Below are positions 1 to 42,624 of a stretch of DNA of 42,624 bases, in pieces (within the stretch, counting starts at the first letter, position 1; every line of letters starts with the position of its first letter). The position numbers were made by a program, and so were the translations under genes. This stretch comes from Escherichia phage vB_Eco_Maverick: sequence record NC_073077.1; one strand, 5' to 3'. The notes below the pieces were generated by a model. It did not search any database, was not told where the DNA came from, and saw nothing but the letters and a program-made list of their open reading frames with translations.

Positions 1-127
1 GGGGCGGGACAAAGCGGGACAGCACCCAGTCCCCGCCAGTGCTGCCGCGGTTTTCAGCCGATCGGGACAAGCGGGACAAAGCCCAGTCTTTCAGACTAGA
101 CGGGGGTCAACGGCCCCCCTCGTCTGA
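1..127. repeat. terminal exact repeat; bases 1-127 are identical to 42498-42624 (assembly overlap of a circular or terminally redundant genome)
   Basis: Direct comparison of the first and last 127 nt of the window shows identity; 127 nt is also a common assembler k-mer length. Confidence 0.85.
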
Positions 128-200
128 GACTGAATAAGGTTTGTTTGAAATTCGCTGATACAATGACAGTCGGCAACTGCATAAAAAAGGGGACTGCATA

Positions 201-2843
201 ATGGCAGATCAAGCAGCAGGCATCACGCTGAAGGCTGATGTTGCACAAATCAGAACGGCAAATACTGTGCTGGACTCCTTCGCACAGAAATCCGAGAACA
301 CAGAAAACAAGGTTAAGAAATTAAACGACACCCTCGGCAAATCAAAAAAGGTGACGAGTGACGCCGCGGGCGGAATGGAGAAGCTGGCGACTGAATCGCA
401 GCGCGCTGCCGATGGCATGACGAAACAGGAGCGACTTGCCAACAGGTTAGGCATGTCGACCAAAAACCTGGGCTTTGCCTCGCGTAACGCCGCATTCCAG
501 TTACAGGATATCGCAGTTACGCTTGAGATGGGGATGCCAGTACACCGCGTTATGCTTCAGCAGTTACCGCAGTTAACTGGGGCGTTCGGCGGACTGGGTA
601 ACACGCTGCGTTATGTTGCGGGATTCCTCGGCCCAGTAGGGATCGGCCTTGCCGCCGTAACGGCAACGTTAGGCGTGGGCGTGGCAATTACGTCCCGCGC
701 AGAGAACCAGGTCGCCGCGCTTAACAAGACGCTGGCGCTGTCAGGTAACATTTCCGGCCTCACTGCAAACCAGATCCTGGTGTTATCCGAGAACGCCGAG
801 CGCATGGGCGGATCATTCCGCAAGACGCGTGACACAATCCAGGCGCTGGCGGCGGCGGGTGTGAAAGCGGGTGGTGACTTCGGCGCATTGGCTAAGGTAG
901 TTAATGACTTTGCGAAGGTGTCCAGCCAGCCGATCGAGGATGTGGTGGCGGCGGTGGCGAAGCTGTCAACCGACCCCGTTGGCGGACTGCGTGCGCTGGC
1001 GGATAAGTATCACGTCGTAAACGAAGCGCAGATCCAGCAGGTGCAGTCACTAGTGACGGCTGGTCGCGAAACCGAAGCGGTGGCGCTGGCTAACAAAACA
1101 GCCGCAGCGTCGTTTACCACTATGACCAATGAGATCAAGTCCAACATGGGTACGCTTGAGCGGTCGATGAACGTCGTTACATCGGCAGCTAAATCTATGT
1201 GGGATGCCATCCTGGATGTCGGGCGCGCGCAGTCCTCGAATGAGTCAGAGATGAAAGCGCGTGAATCATTGCAGCGACTGACCACGGCTTACTATGCCGA
1301 GATGAAAGCGGTAAACGCTGCCGGTGGGGTGATGACCGAAGCGCAGAAAGCGCGTATTAACATGCTTTACAGCGAACTGGTAGCCCAGGAAAAAGTAGTG
1401 GCGTCGCTCACCCTGCGCAACCGTGCAGAGCGAGACAACGCAAGTGCCGCTGACGAAGCAGCAAAGGCGAACGAAGAGGCAAACCGCACCGCCCGCGACC
1501 GCGCCGCGTTTGAGAAGGAGTACGCAACCAACGCGAAGAGGCGCGCCGACGAGATCGCCCGCCTCAATTTGCTTAATAAGCGCGGCGTGATTGACGAGAA
1601 AGAGCTTGCCGAGGCGGTGAAGCAGGTCAACGAGCGGTACAAAGACCCCGCCCCGAAGAAGGCCGCCGCTGTTCGAGTCGATGCCGGGCTGAAAATGCTG
1701 GAAGTAGCACGGAGCGAACTGGCCCAGCTTCGAGAATCCGGCAAGCAGATCGAAGCCAACGCATCGACGCAGACCCGCACGCAACGCGCGCAGGCGGCCC
1801 TAAACAAGCTGATCGCGGATAATGAGCAGTTAATCGCAGCAAGCAAAGAAAGAGCACTAACGGCAGCAGAAAAGCAGCAGATGGTCGAATTCGGACGCGT
1901 GAAGGAAGTACGCGAGCAGATCGTCGAAGAAGCCAAATTGCTGGACGCGAAAGAGAAGCAGGTCAAGGCGCACGCGCAGATCGACGCCTTCGTTAAGAAC
2001 CAGAACGCCGAGCTAAAAGCCACCGCGGCGGGCTATGCGCTTTCCACTCGCGAAGCGGCTAACCTGCGCGAAGAATTACAGCTGATTGACCGCCTTAAGC
2101 GCGTTGGTGCTAACGATACCGATATTGACCTGGCGGTGTCTAAGCTGCGCGAAGTGCAGGAAGCACAGACCGGTGCTAACGCCTCGCTATGGGATGGCTT
2201 CAGCCGCGGGCTTAAGGATAGCGTGGATGAAATGGGTAACGGCTACACGCAGATGACGTCACTCACAAAATTCACGTTCGGCGCTATGCAGGACACGATG
2301 AACGAGTTTTTCGAGACTGGCAAGCTGAACGCAAAGGATATGGTTAAGTCCATCCTGAGCGAATTAATCAAGCTGGCTACCTCGCAGGCATTCAAGTCCA
2401 TCGTTAGCGCTTTCGGTGGCGACGGCGGCAAAAACGGATTGTTCGGCGCTATCTTCTCTGGCCTAACTAAGAATGCGGACGGAGGAGCGTACGCAGGGGG
2501 CAATCTCGCGGCCTATTCGGGGCAAGTGGTAAGCCAGCCCACCTTTTTCAGTTACGGCGTCCAGGCGTTCGCAAAGGGCGCGGGATTGATGGGGGAGGCC
2601 GGACCCGAGGCCATCATGCCACTGAAGCGCGGCCCGGACGGCAAACTGGGCGTTGCCGCTGCCGGTGTAGGCGGGGGGATGATTGTAACGACCAACGTTA
2701 ACATGGGGACCGGTAAGACGGATACCAGTGTTAGCGGACCAGACCCGCGCACCGCGCAGGCGTTCGGGAAGCAAATCACCGAGTCGGTCAAGGCCGAGAT
2801 CGTGAAGGCGACGAAACCGGGTGGTGTACTTTACAAACGATGA
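201..2843 (+). CDS. tail tape measure protein
   Basis: 880-aa ORF, Ala/Gln/Lys/Glu-rich with long predicted coiled coils and a Gly-rich C-terminus; lies between tail chaperone G/G-T and M/L/K/I/J-like genes; AAGGGGA Shine-Dalgarno before ATG 201. Confidence 0.8.
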   Translation: MADQAAGITLKADVAQIRTANTVLDSFAQKSENTENKVKKLNDTLGKSKKVTSDAAGGMEKLATESQRAADGMTKQERLANRLGMSTKNLGFASRNAAFQLQDIAVTLEMGMPVHRVMLQQLPQLTGAFGGLGNTLRYVAGFLGPVGIGLAAVTATLGVGVAITSRAENQVAALNKTLALSGNISGLTANQILVLSENAERMGGSFRKTRDTIQALAAAGVKAGGDFGALAKVVNDFAKVSSQPIEDVVAAVAKLSTDPVGGLRALADKYHVVNEAQIQQVQSLVTAGRETEAVALANKTAAASFTTMTNEIKSNMGTLERSMNVVTSAAKSMWDAILDVGRAQSSNESEMKARESLQRLTTAYYAEMKAVNAAGGVMTEAQKARINMLYSELVAQEKVVASLTLRNRAERDNASAADEAAKANEEANRTARDRAAFEKEYATNAKRRADEIARLNLLNKRGVIDEKELAEAVKQVNERYKDPAPKKAAAVRVDAGLKMLEVARSELAQLRESGKQIEANASTQTRTQRAQAALNKLIADNEQLIAASKERALTAAEKQQMVEFGRVKEVREQIVEEAKLLDAKEKQVKAHAQIDAFVKNQNAELKATAAGYALSTREAANLREELQLIDRLKRVGANDTDIDLAVSKLREVQEAQTGANASLWDGFSRGLKDSVDEMGNGYTQMTSLTKFTFGAMQDTMNEFFETGKLNAKDMVKSILSELIKLATSQAFKSIVSAFGGDGGKNGLFGAIFSGLTKNADGGAYAGGNLAAYSGQVVSQPTFFSYGVQAFAKGAGLMGEAGPEAIMPLKRGPDGKLGVAAAGVGGGMIVTTNVNMGTGKTDTSVSGPDPRTAQAFGKQITESVKAEIVKATKPGGVLYKR

Positions 2844-5614: not shown

Positions 5615-8600
5615 CGATTATCTACGACGTCACTGGGCATAAAGGCGGCGGCGGCAAACAGCACACCCCGCAGGAAACGCCGGATAGCCTGCATTCCCTG
5701 GCTAAAATTCGCATCTTGCTTGCGCTAGGGGAAGGGGAATTCGAAAGTATTACCAGCGACAGCGAATTACGGCAGCGTGTATATCTGGACGGCACGCCGA
5801 TCCAGAACGCCGACCTGTCGGAAAACTTCCCCGGCGCGCGCGTGGAGTTCCGCCCAGGCACACAGCACCAGGACGTGATCCACGGATTTTCAGCGGTGGA
5901 AAGTGAGCAATCCGTAGGCGTAAAACTGGAAAACGGCACGCCGTGGGTGCGCCAGATTAACGACACCAGTCTTGACGCCGTGCGCATTCGAATCGGCATT
6001 CCGGCCCTGTACACCAACGAAGACAACGGCGACCTGGTGGGCGGGCGCATCGACTATAAGATAGTTGTGTATACGGATAACGCCGACCCGCGTGAGTTCA
6101 GATTCGCCGCCGTTGGTAAAACAATGTCGCTATATGAGCGCGACCACCGCATCGAATTACCTCCGAACGTTAACACCGGCTGGCGCGTGGAGGTGCACCG
6201 CATAACGGCAGACTCCACATCGGCGAAAGTGGTTAATGATATCCGGGTGCAGTCCATCACTGAGATTATTGACGCCCGCCTGCGTTACCCGCTAACCGCG
6301 CTGTTGTTTGTGGAGTTCGACGCCAAAGCGTTCCAGAACATCCCGCGCGTGTCCATTAAGTGCAAAGGTCGCAAAGTTCTAATACCGAACAACTACGACC
6401 CGATCAATCATACCTATTCCGGGGACTGGGACGGCACGTTTAAACGCGCATGGACGGATAACCCTGCGTGGCACTGGTACGATATTTGTATTACTGAGCG
6501 CTTCGGCCTCGGTCGGCGTATCAAACCGCAAATGCTAAACCGATACGCGCTCTACCAGATTGCGCAGCGCTGCGATCAGTTGGTCAGCGACGGCAACGGT
6601 GGTCGAGAAATCCGCTTTAAGAATGATATGTACATTCAGTCACAGACGGATGCCTGGACCGTGCTTAAGGATTTAGCCGCTATCTTTGCCGGTATGACCT
6701 GGTGGGGAAATCAGATGTTGAATATCGTCAGTGACCAGCCGGTCGCAGCGGTATCGCACACCATCACCAACGCCTCGGTCATTGATGGTCGATTCGACTA
6801 CGCGTCCGGCAGCCAGAAAACTCGATATTCCACATTCGCGGTAGCATACGGCAACCCGAAGAACCACTATGAAGATGCCATTGCTACGGGGCAGCGTGTC
6901 GAACTGGTACGCCGCCATAAGATTAACCGTCTGGACATCACGGCGATCGGCTGTACGCGTGAATCTGAAGCGCAACGCCGCGGGCACTGGGCGCTAATCT
7001 CCAACCAGCTTGACCAGCAAGTTAGCTTTAAGGTTGGCATGGAGGGACTTTTCTTTATTCCGGGTAGCGTAGTCGCGATCGCGGATACAAACATTTCTGG
7101 CGGCTTCGAGACTCGCGGCGGTCGCCTGTTGTCGGATCCTGGCACGCGGACGGTGCTGAACACAGACAGCGAAATCACGTTCCGCCCTGGCGATAAATTC
7201 CTGGTACGCACCGATAGCGGTAATGTGGAGACTCGCGAGATCGCCAGCGTCAACGGCAACAAGGTTACGCTAAAAACCGCACTGGATGCCGACCCGATTC
7301 CGGACCAGCCGTTTTGCGTCGATGGCAACGATATCCAGTTGCAGAAGTTCCGCATCACCGACCTGGAATATGACGACTCTACCAGCACTTTTTCAGTGCG
7401 CGGGATTGAGTACAACGATAGTAAATATGATGCCGTTGATAATGGCGCTCGCCTTGATCCGGGCATCTTTACTCAAGTGCCTGACGGCGTAATGAAGGGG
7501 CCGGAGTCCGTGACCATCACCCCGTCGCAGATTTCATCGCAAGGCCAGCTAATCACCAACGTGGATATTGTATTCCCTCCGGTGAAGGACGCCGTGGTGT
7601 ATGAAATCCAGTGGCGGCGTACCAGCTTGCAGAATATGGAAATCCAGTGGGGTAACGACTGGGTTAACATCCCACGTACGGCGTCGAACGGCGCGCACAT
7701 CCCTAACGTGTTCTCAGGTAACTACCAAGCACGCGTCCGCGCAATCGGTATGGGCGAGATTTCATCCCCGTGGGTGTCGTCTGCCATCACGCCGATAGAA
7801 GGTCGTCTCGGCGGGCTTAACGCGCCTATCATCACCAACGCGATTTCTGGCCTCCACCAAATTTTGTGGAAGTGGAACCACAACAACGCCGCGACGGATA
7901 TTTCGTACACCGAGCTTGAAGTGCGCAAGACCGGTGAAACGGAATGGAAATTTCTTACCAACGTCCCATACCCAGGGTCAGATTATGCGCAAACGTCTCT
8001 GGAGTTCGGGATCTATCAGCAGTTGCGCGCCCGTGTAGCGGATAAAATCGGCAACCTATCGGACTGGTCCGCACCGTTTGAAGGCCAGGTGAGTGACAAA
8101 GTTGACGAGTACATGAAGGGGCTTGATGACGAGTTCTTGACTTCCGAGGATGGTAAACACTTCCAGGAAGCTATTAACACGATCCCGCAAGGCATTTATG
8201 AGTCAATGCTCACCGACGCCCAGCAGCTATTCAACGCCCGCGCCGAGTACAAAGGGATTTATGCGGAAATCAAGGTGGCGTATAACGTGGCGGCAGACGC
8301 CAACAAGGCGGTAGCACAACTGGAGACGTTGATCGGCACGCGACTTGAAGACGCCGAAGCGGCGATCCACACGTTGCAGACGGCGCAGAGTACGCAAGAG
8401 CAGGCCTTCGCCCAGTATCAGCAGACTGTTGCCGCTAAGTTTTCGGAACAGGAAGCCGCCATACAGCAGGTACAAACGGCAACTGCAGACGTCGCGGGCG
8501 CACTGGCGGAGTATAAGACCCAGGTCGCGGCACAGTTCGGTCAGCAGTCCGCCGCTATCGAGCAGAAGATGACGTCTTCGTTTAACCACTCCGGTGGTAG

Positions 8601-22298: not shown

Positions 22299-22812
22299 TT
22301 AATCTTCCAGTTCGAAATAGGTTTCGACGATTTCTTTTAACTCTGTGTGGAAGTCTTCGACGTCGTCATCTTCCAGCTTGGCGATTGATTTTATCTCGAA
22401 CGATTCCAGCAGGTCGTCGAATTCGTCGTTCGCATCGTCGTCATCACCACCGGCGATAATCGCGGCATACTGTTTGATTTCGTCGCGCATCTCCGCCAGC
22501 GGATCGGCATCTTTCTTGCCTTTGCCTTTCGCTTTTTTAGCCTTAGCCGGTTTTTCGTCTTCGGCGTCTTCGTCGTCGTCATCTTCTACGACTTCTTTTT
22601 TGGCCTTACCCTTCGCCGGTGCTTTTTTAGCTTTAGCCGGTTTTTCGTCTTCGGCTTCATCGTCGCCATCTTCGACAACTTCTTTTTTGGCCTTAGACGG
22701 CTTCTTGTCGTCCTGCTTACCAACGGCAGCGCCAACGGTTTCATAATGCTTAGCGATGACTTCCAGTGCTACTACGCCGCGAGTGATCAGGTTTACGATT
22801 TGCTCAAACATG
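22299..22812 (-). CDS. charged-repeat protein (acidic blocks alternating with Lys/Ala-rich blocks)
   Basis: Start at MFEQIVNL with GGAG Shine-Dalgarno 8 nt upstream; contains two near-identical ~78-bp DNA repeats (22531-22608 and 22621-22696) encoding KKEVVEDxDDEAEDEKPAKAKKA; the longer frame to 22991 lacks an RBS. Confidence 0.55.
22531..22696. repeat. intragenic tandem repeat, two ~78-bp units with a ~90-bp period
   Basis: gcttttttagccttagccggtttttcgtcttcggc... repeated with a few substitutions. Confidence 0.8.
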
Positions 22813-23048
22813 GTATATCTCCGATTGGTTAAGTTTAGGTGTCGGCAGTTAACTTCGTCGGTGGCCTTAACATATTGCCAGGTTGCGCGTTCTCCCGTTC
22901 GGGTAGTGGACCTGGTTATATAATCACGGTTGGGAATCCTGACACTTCGATCCGGCCCCTGCGTTGCCCCTCTCCAGTTTGCGTCCTGCATCCTGTCGAC
23001 GGAGTGAATGATAGATTGGTTGCAGGATGGGTGTCAACAACTAATTTC

Positions 23049-23213: not shown

Positions 23214-23543
23214 ATGAATATCAAAGAAGCAATTGAAGTGTTATCTAATGCAATCCGCGGCGAAGCGGGTAAATCCTGGTATTACACAAATGCGGTGGAT
23301 ACTCTGTTATTTGAAGTGTCCAGATTATCGCGTGCTGAGAAGGAGCTTACCGCGAAGCTGGAATTGCTCAACGGCACGGCAGCAAGCAAGCTGCAAAAAC
23401 ACAATGAAGAAATGGAAGAATACAAAAAGCAGGTTATCCGTTTGCGCAATGAGGGAAAGTCATGGGCAATGATCGCCGAGTTGACCGGAATTAATCAGAG
23501 CACAGTGCGCTCCTGGGTACGCAATAATAAAACTTCAAAGTAA
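23214..23543 (+). CDS. helix-turn-helix DNA-binding protein (putative transcriptional regulator)
   Basis: 109 aa with coiled-coil centre and C-terminal HTH (KSWAMIAELTGINQSTVRSWV); AGGAG Shine-Dalgarno; first gene of the plus-strand block. Confidence 0.55.
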   Translation: MNIKEAIEVLSNAIRGEAGKSWYYTNAVDTLLFEVSRLSRAEKELTAKLELLNGTAASKLQKHNEEMEEYKKQVIRLRNEGKSWAMIAELTGINQSTVRSWVRNNKTSK

Positions 23544-25818: not shown

Positions 25819-25829
25819 ATTTTGCGTGT

Positions 25830-25928
25830 ATTGGTTGCCGATATGGGAATTCCCATATCGCTAAACGGTTAATTTGTGCGCGCATTGGTTGCCATTTTGA
25901 GTGTTTTTATCTGGTCGTATTGGTTGCC
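25830..25928 (+). repeat. three direct ATTGGTTGCC repeats flanking a perfect 20-bp palindrome
   Basis: ATTGGTTGCC at 25830, 25884 and 25919; GATATGGGAATTCCCATATC at 25840-25859. Confidence 0.8.
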
Positions 25929-25978
25929 GTGTAGTGTAAATATAATGAATAGTTATGCAGTTTTATTGCATAAAGTAG

Positions 25979-26128
25979 GCGGGACAGAAAGCGGGACAAA
26001 CAGGGGGCGGGACAAAGCGGGACAGCACCCCCGTCCCGCCCCGGATGACGCGGCTTCCAGAGGAGCGGGACAGCGGGACAGCACCCCAGTCTTTCAGACT
26101 AGACGGGGGTCAACGGCCCCCCTCGTCT
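25979..26128. repeat. iteron cluster: six direct GCGGGACA octamers plus one inverted copy, ending in a 28-nt GC hairpin (internal copy)
   Basis: GCGGGACA at 25979, 25991, 26007, 26017, 26065, 26073; inverted GTCCCGC at 26033; hairpin agacgggggtcaacggcccccctcgtct at 26101-26128; TGCATAAA box at 25967. Confidence 0.85.
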
Positions 26129-26295
26129 GAGACTGAATAAAATCCGGGGATTGCAAAATACACGGCAGCATGATGCGAAGTGCGGTCGTCGATGAACTAG
26201 GCAACCAATGCGGGTTGTATTATGCTGAGTGAAAAATGCAGTTTTCAGCCACAGCTGATATCGATCAACTTTTTCATGCGCGTGATTAATATTGG

Positions 26296-26324
26296 TTGCA
26301 TTCACCCCAGCACCCTGCTATATT
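26296..26324 (+). promoter_or_regulatory. sigma70-like promoter TTGCAT-N17-TATATT inside ATTGGTTGCA motifs
   Basis: TTGCAT 26296-26301, 17-nt spacer, TATATT 26319-26324, about 28 nt upstream of ATG 26353. Confidence 0.4.
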
Positions 26325-26352
26325 GGTTGCACACCAACATGAGGACTGAACA

Positions 26353-26802
26353 ATGGAACACGAAGACCTGGTCGACGAATTGCTTGAGGCTGAGAACAAA
26401 GCTGATTTGCAAGCACGCGCAGCATACATGGTCGGCAACATTAAGAAATCGCGCCACTACGCCGGATTGCGTGTAAAGGCGCAAGAGGACCGAACAATGA
26501 AAGCATTAATCTGGAATTACACAATGGCTGTGGCGAAGCTGTACGAAGCAAAACACACAAACGGCAACGCAGACGACGCGCGCCAGGCTGTCATCCTGGC
26601 CCAGCAGGGAATCATGAACGCGTTCGACGATATGTTTGCCAGCCTGGACGAACTGGAACCGCTGCGCGTGGCAATCTGCGAATATGCGATGGCATTTGCC
26701 CGTGAGCGCCTGGCGTATCGCTTTGGTATCGGCGAGACGGCAGTGACAAACGTCGCCCGGATTAAAGCCCAGCGCGAACTATTCGCCCAGCTTGCGAAAT
26801 AA
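26353..26802 (+). CDS. hypothetical protein
   Basis: 149-aa ORF with GAGGA Shine-Dalgarno; first gene after the iteron region. Confidence 0.55.
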   Translation: MEHEDLVDELLEAENKADLQARAAYMVGNIKKSRHYAGLRVKAQEDRTMKALIWNYTMAVAKLYEAKHTNGNADDARQAVILAQQGIMNAFDDMFASLDELEPLRVAICEYAMAFARERLAYRFGIGETAVTNVARIKAQRELFAQLAK

Positions 26803-30939: not shown

Positions 30940-31491
30940 ATGGCAGAAATTAAAGTTAAGGGCCGACGCGCCAAACTGGACGGACGAGTAGCAGTAACCC
31001 CTCGCCGTAAACCAGGCGAGCAAACCGAGCACACCAATCTCGGACCTGAAATCGAGTACGGAAAGCGCCGTAAAGGCGGCAAATGTGGACGCCCTACTGA
31101 CTACCGATCCGTTTACTGCGACCAGCTTCGCCGCTATTTTGCCGACGCCGACGCATGGCAGGTCAACTACTCCGATAAAGGCGCTGCGCAAGTAATCCCC
31201 CGGAACAAAATGCCAACCTTCGGCCGATTTGCCGCTGAAATCGGCGTGGGCGTAGCTTGCTTGTATCGCTGGGCGCGTGCGCATGAGGAGTTTGCCGAGG
31301 CGATGGCGGACGCAATGGAGTTGCAGAAAACTTTCCTGATGGAAGCTGGCGGCGTAACCATCGCGGCGGGCTTCGCTACGTTCCTGCTTAAAGCAAACCA
31401 CGGCGTCCGCGACGATGTACCGCTGGATGACGACGAAGATGATAACGGCGACGTAGTTGTCGAACCTTCCGGCAAAGGTCAGGGTGAATAA
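30940..31491 (+). CDS. terminase small subunit
   Basis: 183-aa basic N-terminus and acidic C-terminus, directly upstream of and overlapping the large terminase; start at MAEIKVKG with AAGG Shine-Dalgarno, alternative starts at 30919 or 30841. Confidence 0.6.
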   Translation: MAEIKVKGRRAKLDGRVAVTPRRKPGEQTEHTNLGPEIEYGKRRKGGKCGRPTDYRSVYCDQLRRYFADADAWQVNYSDKGAAQVIPRNKMPTFGRFAAEIGVGVACLYRWARAHEEFAEAMADAMELQKTFLMEAGGVTIAAGFATFLLKANHGVRDDVPLDDDEDDNGDVVVEPSGKGQGE

Positions 31492-32876
31492 TGCGTAACT
31501 ATGCGGCAGAACACCGCGCACTGGAACGCGCGATCGCAAAGCGCAACCGACCGCCACGCCCGACACGCGTTGCGCAGGCCGTCCGCCTTTACCAGCCTGA
31601 TTGCTTGCCGCACCAGGTTGAACTACTGCGCGACACAAAGACTAAAATCCTCGGCCTGTGCTCCGGCTTCGGCGGTGGAAAGTCGTGGGTCGCTGCGCGT
31701 AAGGTCATCCAGCTTTTAACCCTGAACCCAGGTAATGACGGCATCGTTACAGAACCGACTATTCCGCTCCTGGTTAAAATCATGTATCCGGAACTGGAGA
31801 AGGCATTCGACGAGGCTGGATTCCGGTGGAAGTTCAATAAGCAGGACAAGATTTATAGCGTGCTGGTGAAAGGGAAATGGACCCGCGTTATCTGTGAATC
31901 AATGGAGAACTATACCCGCCTGATCGGGGTCAACGCCGCATGGATTGTCGCCGATGAATTCGACACTACTAAGCAAGACGTCGCGCTGGCGGCGTATCAC
32001 AAATTGCTCGGTCGTCTGCGTGCGGGCTTCGTCCGCCAGTTCGTCATCGTGTCAACGCCTGAAGGCTACCGGGCGATGTATCAAATTTTCGAGGTGGAGA
32101 AAGACAACCAGAAACGCTTGATCCGGGCGAAGACCACGGACAACCACCATTTACCGGCAGACTTTATCGACACGCTGCGCAGTCAGTACCCGGCTAACCT
32201 GATTGATGCGTACCTGAACGGCCTGTTTGTTAACCTTACGTCGGGCGCGGTGTACAAGATGTTCAACCGAGAGGAGAACGCCAGCACCGAAGAAGTGCAG
32301 CCGGACGACACGCTGATTATCGGTATGGACTTTAACGTCACTAAGATGGCGGCGGTTGTGTACGTCAGACGGCAGCGAGTCACCGAGAACAAGGAGTTCC
32401 GCGACGAGATTCACGCGGTGGATGAATTTGTGGACCTGTTTGATACCCCGGCTATGATTGAGGCGATCGAGGAGCGATACCCCGATCATTGTGCTGCCGG
32501 TCGTGTTGTCGTTTACCCGGATAGCAGCGGCAAGTCTCGCAAGACTGTCAACGCATCGTCGTCAGATATCGCGCAACTGGAAGACGCGGGCTTCGAGGTG
32601 GAGTATGACAGCGTTAACCCGCCTGTGAAAGACCGATTGATCGCGATGAATACGATGATGTGCAACTCGAAGGGCGTGCGCCAGTATTTTGTCAACCTGG
32701 ATAAATGCCCTACACTAGCGAAATGTCTGGAACAGCAGGTTTACGACCTGAAGAAAGGCGAGCCGGATAAGACCGCCGGTGTGGACCACATGAACGATGC
32801 CGCGGGATACCCAATTGCGCACCTGTTCCCAGTGATTCGTCCGATCGCCGTTGTTCCAACTGTAGACTTCTACTAA
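31491..32876 (+). CDS. terminase large subunit
   Basis: Walker A-like LCSGFGGGKSW, Walker B WIVADEFD, C-terminal nuclease-like acidic motifs; 461 aa; followed by the portal gene. Confidence 0.9.
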   Translation: MRNYAAEHRALERAIAKRNRPPRPTRVAQAVRLYQPDCLPHQVELLRDTKTKILGLCSGFGGGKSWVAARKVIQLLTLNPGNDGIVTEPTIPLLVKIMYPELEKAFDEAGFRWKFNKQDKIYSVLVKGKWTRVICESMENYTRLIGVNAAWIVADEFDTTKQDVALAAYHKLLGRLRAGFVRQFVIVSTPEGYRAMYQIFEVEKDNQKRLIRAKTTDNHHLPADFIDTLRSQYPANLIDAYLNGLFVNLTSGAVYKMFNREENASTEEVQPDDTLIIGMDFNVTKMAAVVYVRRQRVTENKEFRDEIHAVDEFVDLFDTPAMIEAIEERYPDHCAAGRVVVYPDSSGKSRKTVNASSSDIAQLEDAGFEVEYDSVNPPVKDRLIAMNTMMCNSKGVRQYFVNLDKCPTLAKCLEQQVYDLKKGEPDKTAGVDHMNDAAGYPIAHLFPVIRPIAVVPTVDFY

Positions 32877-35942: not shown

Positions 35943-36710
35943 TAGCGCGGAATACCGCAGATTTCGTTTAACGTCTTCACGTCCAGCGCCACCGCCGTGG
36001 ATTTTGGCTTGTCAGGGTAAGGAATGAACTGTTCCACTTCAGGCCACGCCTTGATCAGCTTCTTATCGGTATTGTGCATATCCAGCACACCGGTAACGGT
36101 TAGTTTGAACGCGTCATAATTAGCTCGCAACTCGCGGCGGGCCTTGTCGTTGCGATCCAGGCACTTACAGAAATCATGGTCCGCCGGGTAGTCTACGCGA
36201 CCGCGCGGAAGATATATCGGCAGCGATTTTCCGTCCTCGTCCACTTCGCACACTGAAGCCAGCATAACTTCCTCGTACCCCGGTACGATATCACCGAGAT
36301 CGGGAGATAGCTTGTTCATATATTTCTCTTCCCAGTATCCGCGGTGCAGGCGGTATCGGTATCCATCGCCGCTCAATGATACGGTGCGAACATTACCGCC
36401 TGCGTTGATATCGAATCCGGCGCTATAAACGCTGCCGATGCCTTTTGGCCGGTCGGAGTTATAGCTATACGTCGCCTTGTCGGTGTAAACGCTAACGCCA
36501 TACATCTGCGACTGGTTATCGCGGATTTCTGCGATATATGCGCGTAACTCGGCGAACGTGCGAATGCCTTCCGGCATACAGTCCAGCGTAATGGCGTACG
36601 CCAAGTCGCGAGAGTCCATCATGATGGATTTTGCTTCGGTCGCGATTTCATGGTCGCGCAGGATGTTAGCCAGAATCTTGTTTTTAACGTCTTTTGTCAG
36701 TCTCATTTTT
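35942..36710 (-). CDS. hypothetical protein, moron-like gene on the opposite strand inside the structural module
   Basis: 256-aa product starting MRLTKDVKNKIL at ATG 36710; own promoter and leader upstream; the longer frame to 37114 is antisense to the scaffold gene. Confidence 0.55.
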
Positions 36711-40851: not shown

Positions 40852-41577
40852 ATGGGTTATCAACTTCCCAACGGGTCCAGCGTCCAGATCGGGTCCGTAT
40901 TAGGCAGCGGCATCGCGGTTACGGCAGCTACCAACGCCGCGGCGTCGATCTCCGACCTTACGCAAGGTTGCGTAATTACCTGTGCGGCTTCGCATGGTCT
41001 GGTTGTTGGCGACGTTGTTATGTTCACTAAAACCCCGTGGGTCCGAGCGCTTAACCGCGCATTCATCGTGGGTAAAGTGGACACCAACGACGTTACGCTG
41101 GCGCGCTTCGACACCGAAGACGTCACAAAATACCCGACCGGCGCTTTCAGCGTAGGCACTCCAGGCGAAGTGGTGAAGGTGTCGGGCTTTATCGACTTCC
41201 CTTTCATTACTAACGTTGCCGTGTCTGGTGGCGACCAGCAGACGACTACCTTCCAGCCGTTGCAGGTGAACACCGCAATCAGTCTGAACACCACGAAAAA
41301 CCCGTTGGTACAGACTTACACTTTCACCCACGACGAAGAAGACCCGATCCGCCCAATCCTGGAAGACCTGGACGACACACAGAAAACCACTGTGATCAAG
41401 TTCACTAACCCAGCGGCAGCAAGCGGCAAAGGTGAGATTCGTATTTACCCAGCTAAGGTATCTTTCCAGAAGATTCCGTCCGCTGAAGTAAACAACGTGG
41501 AAACGGTACAATCCACTCTGACCATGCAGTCTGATATGGTTATCTACCGTAAGGATCTGGTCGAGGCATTGTCTTGA
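40852..41577 (+). CDS. major tail protein
   Basis: 241-aa beta-rich ORF with AGGAG Shine-Dalgarno, directly upstream of the G/G-T chaperone pair and followed by a terminator. Confidence 0.7.
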   Translation: MGYQLPNGSSVQIGSVLGSGIAVTAATNAAASISDLTQGCVITCAASHGLVVGDVVMFTKTPWVRALNRAFIVGKVDTNDVTLARFDTEDVTKYPTGAFSVGTPGEVVKVSGFIDFPFITNVAVSGGDQQTTTFQPLQVNTAISLNTTKNPLVQTYTFTHDEEDPIRPILEDLDDTQKTTVIKFTNPAAASGKGEIRIYPAKVSFQKIPSAEVNNVETVQSTLTMQSDMVIYRKDLVEALS

Positions 41578-41646: not shown

Positions 41647-42009
41647 ATGGCTAAAGCACCACTCTTCACACTTGACCCTAAGCCAACCTTTAAGCTGCCG
41701 ATTGAGATCCCGCGCCCTGGTGAGAACGAACCAGGCAAGATGACGTTTACCGTACGCCACCGCCCGATCGACGAGTTTTCGCAGACCATGCAGGACACCG
41801 AACGCAAGCTGTCGGAATATGACGACAATGACCCGGACGGCTTTAACGTTATGGTCGAGGCCATCATGCACGTCGCAGAAGGCTGGAATCTGCCGGACGA
41901 ATTTAACGCGGAGAACGTCCGCCGCCTGGTGGTCAACTATCCACGCGCGTTCGGTGTGTTCCACACGTCGTACTATCTCGAACTGATGGGGTTGCGTGAA
42001 AAAAACTAA
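41647..42009 (+). CDS. tail assembly chaperone G
   Basis: 120-aa acidic ORF between major tail and tape-measure genes; GGAG Shine-Dalgarno; ends ...REKN-stop with slippery A_AAA_AAC at its 3' end. Confidence 0.7.
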   Translation: MAKAPLFTLDPKPTFKLPIEIPRPGENEPGKMTFTVRHRPIDEFSQTMQDTERKLSEYDDNDPDGFNVMVEAIMHVAEGWNLPDEFNAENVRRLVVNYPRAFGVFHTSYYLELMGLREKN

Positions 42010-42323
42010 TTGAGGCGGCGCGACGCTTTTATGGCCCGCCGCCACCCTCCGAAGATTTAGCCGCAAGTTTATGGGGCGCGGCCCCCGAAGATGTTTGTCC
42101 ACCTGTTGCGCTGTGGCCCGACAACGCGAAGGTAGTCGCAGTCTTCACAGATTGCTCCACGCAATGGCGCACCGGATTTGGTGGCGCATACGGCATCGAC
42201 TACGGCGTGCTGGAGTGGTTATTTAAGATGCACGGTATCGAAAACGAACAGCGCGCGTTTAAAGATATCAAGCTAATGGAACGAATAGCGCTTGATGAGA
42301 TGGCGCAGCAGAACCACGCATAA
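41647..42323 (+). CDS. tail assembly chaperone G-T fusion, made by -1 programmed frameshift at 42000-42006
   Basis: After a -1 slip on A_AAA_AAC the reading frame stays open for about 105 codons (…LIEAARRFYGPPPPSEDLAASLWG…) to the TAA at 42321-42323; this frame has no in-frame start of its own. Confidence 0.6.
42000..42006 (+). other. -1 ribosomal frameshift slippery heptamer A_AAA_AAC
   Basis: Heptamer sits in the zero frame of gene G three codons before its stop; X_XXY_YYZ pattern. Confidence 0.6.
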
Positions 42324-42327
42324 TGAA

Positions 42328-42621
42328 GCGGGACGTCCCGCTTTGTCCCGCCCTGTAAAACCGCATATCTAATCACTTTCATTGCATAAACTCAAAGCGG
42401 GACAGGCGGGACGTCCCGTTTTGTCCCACCCACGAAATGTGCATACCTATTCGAATTTCGTGCATAAAACAAGCGGGACAGAAAGCGGGACAGACAAGGG
42501 GCGGGACAAAGCGGGACAGCACCCAGTCCCCGCCAGTGCTGCCGCGGTTTTCAGCCGATCGGGACAAGCGGGACAAAGCCCAGTCTTTCAGACTAGACGG
42601 GGGTCAACGGCCCCCCTCGTC
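42328..42621. repeat. iteron cluster: GCGGGACGTCCCGC palindromes, about seven direct GCGGGACA octamers, two TGCATAAA boxes, ending in the same 28-nt hairpin (terminal copy, continues into bases 1-200)
   Basis: Palindrome at 42328-42341 and 42406-42418; GCGGGACA at 42397, 42473, 42485, 42501, 42511, 42568; TGCATAAA at 42383 and 42461; hairpin at 42594-42621. Confidence 0.85.
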
Positions 42622-42624
42622 TGA

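Follow-up and report, generated by a model that had tools for sequence, protein, structure and literature searches.

The exact 127-bp identity between the ends of a Dhillonvirus genome sequence is very probably an assembler overlap, cut at the boundary of an internal repeat

Introduction

The assembler SPAdes allows k to be set no larger than 127, and when an edge of its graph forms a loop, the k-mer vertex is written out at each end of that edge. Overlaps of this length have been met before: 127 bp is described as an artificial overlap on SPAdes contigs (PMC5923482), and in a coliphage genome announcement '127 bp terminal repeats' were removed from the SPAdes assembly (PMC8104045). In Dhillonvirus, the ends of the virion DNA have been studied in several isolates, mostly by means of PhageTerm, which indicated headful packaging for Opt-212 (PMC9022532), headful (pac) packaging with permuted DNA for BF9 (PMC10059673) and headful packaging with a preferred pac site for UDS3lw (PMC13348001). 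In a set of five bovine Dhillonviruses, the same program classified four as 'circular permutated' and one as 'fixed' (PMC8407724), and a 10-nt 5' cos end, ATCTTAAGGG, has been claimed for EE09 (PMC10673088). Headful packaging is thus not unanimous among Dhillonvirus phages, because of the cos end of EE09 and the single fixed bovine isolate.

The closest described counterpart of the DNA around the junction is found in Sodalis phage SO-1, where the annotation entry of the GenBank record (GQ502199.1) reads 'region A; direct, inverted and palindromic repeat sequences; sequence similarity with region B'. The entry, as far as it is shown, assigns the region no function, and a literature search found no paper describing these two regions of SO-1. 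Here we analyse the window, by which we mean the whole stretch of 42,624 nucleotides, whose first 127 bases recur at its end, and we propose how this identity arose and why the sequence was opened where it was.

Results

The two ends of the window were compared as strings, and bases 1–127 equal bases 42498–42624 exactly, in agreement with the original prediction. The longest prefix that is also a suffix is exactly 127 nt, which leaves a unique length of 42,497 bp and confirms the approximate figure given earlier. A match over 127 bases has a chance probability of about 4^-127 and is effectively impossible as a coincidence. All of the circular 127-mers of the unique sequence (42,497/42,497) are distinct, and therefore the 127-mer at 1–127 belongs to the genome once, its duplicate at 42498–42624 being the sequence written past its own start and the redundant stretch to be trimmed. 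The end identity is real in the file and is, biologically, no feature; its length equals the assembler k, and how large any real terminal redundancy might be cannot be read from it.

The window represents a Dhillonvirus, an HK578/SO-1-like virulent siphophage of E. coli. Its first 20 kb matched 160 phage records, the best of which was LR999870.1 (Escherichia phage vB_Eco_CS16) with 100% identity, and over the whole circle the two genomes are separated by 4 SNPs and by two indels, of 9 nt and 41 nt. An exact-protein look-up found the window's tape-measure protein in the CS16 assembly alone, a literature search found no publication on vB_Eco_CS16, and a 36-mer spanning the junction had 0 exact matches in a viral-contig collection. 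The CS16 record, of 42,656 bp, has an exact 127-nt prefix equal to its suffix as well, and was opened about 6.2 kb from the window's cut. Bases 1–127 of the window lie internally in CS16 as a single copy (6184–6310), and a 527-nt string over the window junction has one exact match there, at 5984. The 127-bp overlap of CS16 is in turn internal and single copy in the window (36315–36441), such that each assembly runs through the other's cut without duplication. An overlap of the same length at different places in two near-identical genomes is what an assembler overlap predicts and what a real terminal repeat does not. The window junction is also contiguous in 151 of 157 Dhillonvirus records. Together with CS16, these relatives agree with the earlier description of the window as a closed circular contig or a terminally redundant genome written with an overlap, and the suspicion that its linear ends are probably not the biological termini is upheld by CS16, which passes through the window junction in single copy and carries its own overlap elsewhere. 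Further overlaps of exactly 127 nt were found in the records of PNS1 (MK138527.1), CHD5UKE2 (MZ234029.1) and Lzu_P3 (PQ295796.1); in window coordinates, the cuts lie at 36315 for CS16, at about 42211 for PNS1, at 42477 for CHD5UKE2 and at about 42206 for Lzu_P3.

These comparisons bear directly on the possibility that the 127 bp are a true direct terminal repeat of the T7 type, with the physical ends of the DNA at the ends of the window. The window as written has that form, and short direct terminal repeats of 100–250 bp exist in other phage groups. However, near-identical CS16 carries the string once and internally and has a same-length overlap elsewhere, the great majority of relatives are contiguous over the junction, the length is that of the SPAdes artefact, with ends at these positions the tail operon would be divided within a non-coding element, and most congeners have been reported as headful or permuted. 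We regard this possibility as effectively refuted by the CS16 comparison, and give it almost no credence.

We consider it highly likely that the 127-bp identity is the leftover k-mer overlap of a de Bruijn assembler on a circularised genome. The assembler was probably SPAdes, as the length of the overlap is the artefact length named in the literature on that program. Since all of its circular 127-mers are distinct, the genome forms one loop without branches at k = 127. The loop edge would have been printed from one surviving vertex, the 127-mer at window 1–127, back to the same vertex, which would place that 127-mer at both ends of the contig. The closure of the loop would itself most likely reflect headful, circularly permuted and terminally redundant virion DNA.

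The junction lies inside a 375-nt non-coding repeat element, region A, which extends on the plus strand from the stop codon of the tail chaperone GT to the start of the tape-measure gene. The upstream part of region A occupies 42324–42624 and the element continues into 1–200, its remainder beyond the overlap being 128–200, up to the tape-measure ATG at 201. A paralogous repeat element, region B, is found at 25819–26221 (plus strand) after the helicase-primase gene, and its core (25967–26140) is about 87% identical to 42461–42497 plus 1–137. The motif GCGGGAC has 27 matches in the window against 8.1 expected, and is clustered at 25979–26079 and at 42328–42574, continuing into 1–77. The cut sits within the latter cluster, as the original prediction proposed in placing it inside an iteron element. 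Regions A and B are both present in 12/12 Dhillonviruses examined, from which 23 copies were aligned (the A copy of Kente being split by the record ends), and the element is confined to Dhillonvirus records (157 of 50,697 phage records). The core begins with TGCATAAA, followed by four direct GCGGGACA units at a spacing of 10–16 nt, one inverted unit and two more direct ones, with 6–7 such repeats per element copy, one of them inverted. It ends in an almost invariant imperfect hairpin of about 50 nt, CAGTCTTTCAGACTAGAC-G5-loop-C6-T-CGTCTGAGACTG, in which the loop alone varies among the 23 copies. Folding gave −27.1 kcal/mol for the hairpin as RNA (z = −3.4) and −13.4 kcal/mol as DNA (z = −3.2); covariation is silent for or against the structure because the stems are invariant. 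Concerted evolution of the A and B copies was considered and is unsupported, identity being 83.5% within a genome versus 82.9% between genomes. Since the copies resemble each other no more within than between genomes, A and B are old paralogs under separate constraint. A search of the junction region against Rfam returned only sub-threshold microRNA-family noise, and no promoter or terminator consensus in regions A and B rose above shuffled expectation.

Two further observations concern the surroundings of region B. Repeats of a second family, ATTGGTTGC(C), occur as three direct copies on the upstream side of the region-B core (25831–25930), one inverted copy downstream of it (26203–26212, minus strand) and two more copies just past window 26252 (26290–26330). 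Directly upstream of the helicase-primase gene, 23214–23543 (plus strand) encodes a 109-aa homologue of SO-1 gp47, which is assigned to PHROG 9366 'transposase' and has weak similarity to sigma-70 region 4 and HTH domains. The protein is a candidate DNA binder for the repeats of the element.

The position of the window's cut is not arbitrary; it falls exactly on the boundary of a 27-nt repeat. Copies A and B have only two long exact stretches in common. The first is the 27-nt repeat GGGGCGGGACAAAGCGGGACAGCACCC (1–27, plus strand), which is shared with 26004–26030 and whose left boundary is window base 1; it is left-maximal, as it is preceded by A (base 42497) in copy A and by G in copy B. The second, of 56 nt (82–137, plus strand), is shared with 26085–26140 and holds the conserved imperfect hairpin CAGTCTTTCAGACTAGACGGGGG-loop-CCCCCCTCGTCTGAGACTG. 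In the 42,497 bp, maximal exact repeats of at least 25 nt have only four boundaries, of which window base 1 is one; an arbitrary cut would therefore fall on such a boundary about once in 10,000 (~1e-4). When the graph logic was computed, a path leading from copy B through the 27-mer into copy A contained 99 novel 127-mers and re-entered the genome at the 127-mer beginning with base 1. We infer from this that the surviving vertex had its origin in a chimeric path. A minor path could have joined the main loop at base 1 by a switch from B to A within the shared 27-nt stretch, whether as a PCR or sequencing chimera or as a rare recombinant; pruning of that path by the assembler would then have left the loop with the junction vertex alone, from which the contig would have been printed. 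A more general rule, in which every record with a 127-nt overlap is cut at a maximal exact-repeat boundary, was rejected, as it is true for the window alone among the five. The CS16 cut (window 36315) is at no repeat, and those of PNS1, CHD5UKE2 and Lzu_P3 lie in or beside region A and off the maximal-repeat boundaries. The repeat-boundary mechanism therefore explains the window's cut specifically and not all cuts, since those of the other four records are off such boundaries. The cut position of a 'circular' contig can be set by internal repeats, and gives no information on packaging sites.

The cut might instead mark a real physical or population feature at the element, namely A/B recombinants, variation in the number of repeat units, or a site-specific nick or end. 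This would be in keeping with a cut exactly on an exact-repeat boundary shared by A and B, and with the ends of other records. In an evenly spaced sample of the 157 records, at least five (PNS1, BEK2-2, Kente, Lzu_P3 and CHD5UKE2) have ends within about 150 nt of the ~375-nt element, where a rough estimate for arbitrary cuts in this zone of ~0.6 kb gives below one; most records have been re-opened deliberately, either at the gene for the small terminase or at a single other position that they share. Of the four other records with a 127-nt overlap, three (PNS1, CHD5UKE2 and Lzu_P3) are cut in or adjoining region A. In the Kente record (OX460974.1), which shows no overlap, about 80 nt of region A are missing; the sequence stops at the 27-nt A/B repeat and resumes in the hairpin loop, which indicates that the assembly broke inside the element. 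However, it is quite general for assemblers to break, and for PCR or sequencing chimeras to arise, at repeats, palindromes and G/C-rich hairpins, and reads that merely end at a site make no new k-mers. The records also end at different bases, and so there is no common terminus at region A. A real feature behind the window's cut is in our view unlikely, and it is equally unlikely that the concentration of break points at region A reflects a molecular property of Dhillonvirus DNA such as A/B recombination or a site-specific nick or end. If it did, the element would be a recombination, replication or packaging site.

As regards packaging itself, the small terminase (TerS, 30940–31491) and the large terminase (TerL, 31491–32876) are encoded next to each other on the plus strand (30940–32876). 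TerL matches Terminase_6N/6C above the cut-off, a family that is not specific to one packaging mode, and its match to the PBSX-family model TIGR01547 is weak (41 bits, where the cut-off is 105); among PDB sequences, phmmer found no match to TerL. TerS belongs to PHROG 3064, with weak matches to the TerS of Sf6 and to P22 gp3 that lie below the Pfam cut-offs. For the window's isolate, headful packaging is the best-supported reading and is probably correct, judging from the termini reported for its relatives. The 127-bp overlap carries no information on packaging mode. It is accordingly compatible with an artefactual overlap on a virion that is non-headful, whose cohesive ends, or longer fixed terminal repeat elsewhere, would equally collapse into a loop; a k-mer overlap is uninformative on the type of end. 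The cos end reported for EE09 and the one bovine isolate called 'fixed' are in favour of such a virion, but the three headful and four permuted PhageTerm assignments are against it, and ATCTTAAGGG was rejected as the end of the window's DNA, as it is absent from the window and its lone match there has one mismatch and is at chance level. A shared start in five records points in the same direction as the EE09 report. UDS3lw, PTXU06, BMA1, Pandora71 and 101114B2, which come from different laboratories, start at the identical base (CAGCAGATAGCGATC...), corresponding to window 26252, which lies about 110 nt past the core of region B, 101 nt ahead of the next gene and 16 kb from the window ends. 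This start may be a measured, PhageTerm-derived pac terminus, or may be a copied convention; for PTXU06, the oldest of the five records, Korf et al. (2019) state no method for it. Taken together, we hold a non-headful virion to be very unlikely.

The genes on either side of the junction belong to one tail module. The major tail protein (40852–41577) is followed by the tail assembly chaperone G and its −1 frameshift extension GT (41647–42323, plus strand), identified by a match to Pfam Phage_TAC_4 (E = 1.7e-23), by translation and by the CS16 annotation, GT being the last gene before the junction. Chaperone G occupies 41647–42009 with its stop codon at 42007–42009, and a canonical −1 slippery heptamer, A_AAA_AAC, lies at 42000–42006, one codon ahead of this stop. 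The −1 frame, open to a stop at 42321–42323, lacks its own start codon, in keeping with a G/GT chaperone pair. The first gene after the junction encodes the tape-measure protein (201–2843, plus strand), with matches to Pfam TMP_2 (E = 2.3e-43) and Tape_meas_lam_C. The junction, contained in a conserved non-coding repeat element, thus falls midway through the tail gene module, and the gene order on both sides agrees with the earlier statement that the tail operon is continuous over it.

The remaining differences between the window and CS16 are observations in their own right. At 26482/26483, the window lacks 41 nt that are present in CS16 (32657–32697), where a direct AAGAGG repeat borders them. 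Through this deletion, two small ORFs are joined into one of 149 aa (26353–26802), the exact product of which was not on record elsewhere in an exact-protein look-up. At 22556–22564, the two genomes differ by 9 nt in length in a short tandem repeat of the CGTCTTCG type, within a minus-strand ORF (22299–22991), and a SNP lies 14 nt from this difference. Among the Dhillonvirus-like records, single ones are labelled as Campylobacter (A144, MG065648.1), Acinetobacter and Salmonella phages and have about 91% identity to the E. coli phages; these records possibly have mislabelled hosts or are contaminants.

Discussion

For curation, the last 127 bases of the window should be trimmed, which gives a genome length of 42,497 bp, and the contig may be regarded as complete. 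Automated completeness tools that rely on repeats tend to report such overlaps as direct terminal repeats, a biological reading that must not be given to the 127 bp. No fewer than four GenBank Dhillonvirus records (LR999870.1, MK138527.1, MZ234029.1 and PQ295796.1) contain the untrimmed 127-nt artefact, and their lengths are inflated by it. In CS16, the artefact also yields a gene that is annotated as wrapping the ends of the record.

When the locus is set beside the described systems, the repeat element corresponds to region A of Sodalis phage SO-1 both in position, between gp16 and the tape-measure gene, and in composition, with direct, inverted and palindromic repeats and a paralogous region B after the helicase-primase gene. 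The T7-like phages share the written form, some 10^2 bp directly repeated at both ends, but the repeat of the window is not reproduced at these coordinates in CS16 or in other relatives, and neither the packaging genes nor the published termini analyses point to that type. With headful phages of the P22, SPP1 and T1 type, the window has in common the closure of the circle, and most of its congeners have been assigned as headful or permuted by PhageTerm; its TerS is weakly similar, below the cut-offs, to those of P22 and Sf6, and its TerL is of the Terminase_6N/6C family. Real headful redundancy is typically of kilobase scale and varies from molecule to molecule, and the fixed 127 bp of the window are unlike it. 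The overlap that SPAdes leaves on circular contigs at k = 127 has the same exact length of 127 nt, the same perfect identity and a sequence that is single copy in independent assemblies, and its sister assemblies show the same length at other positions, as is the case here. There is no material difference between the window's identity and an ordinary SPAdes overlap, the sole notable point being that the window's cut falls on an exact-repeat boundary.
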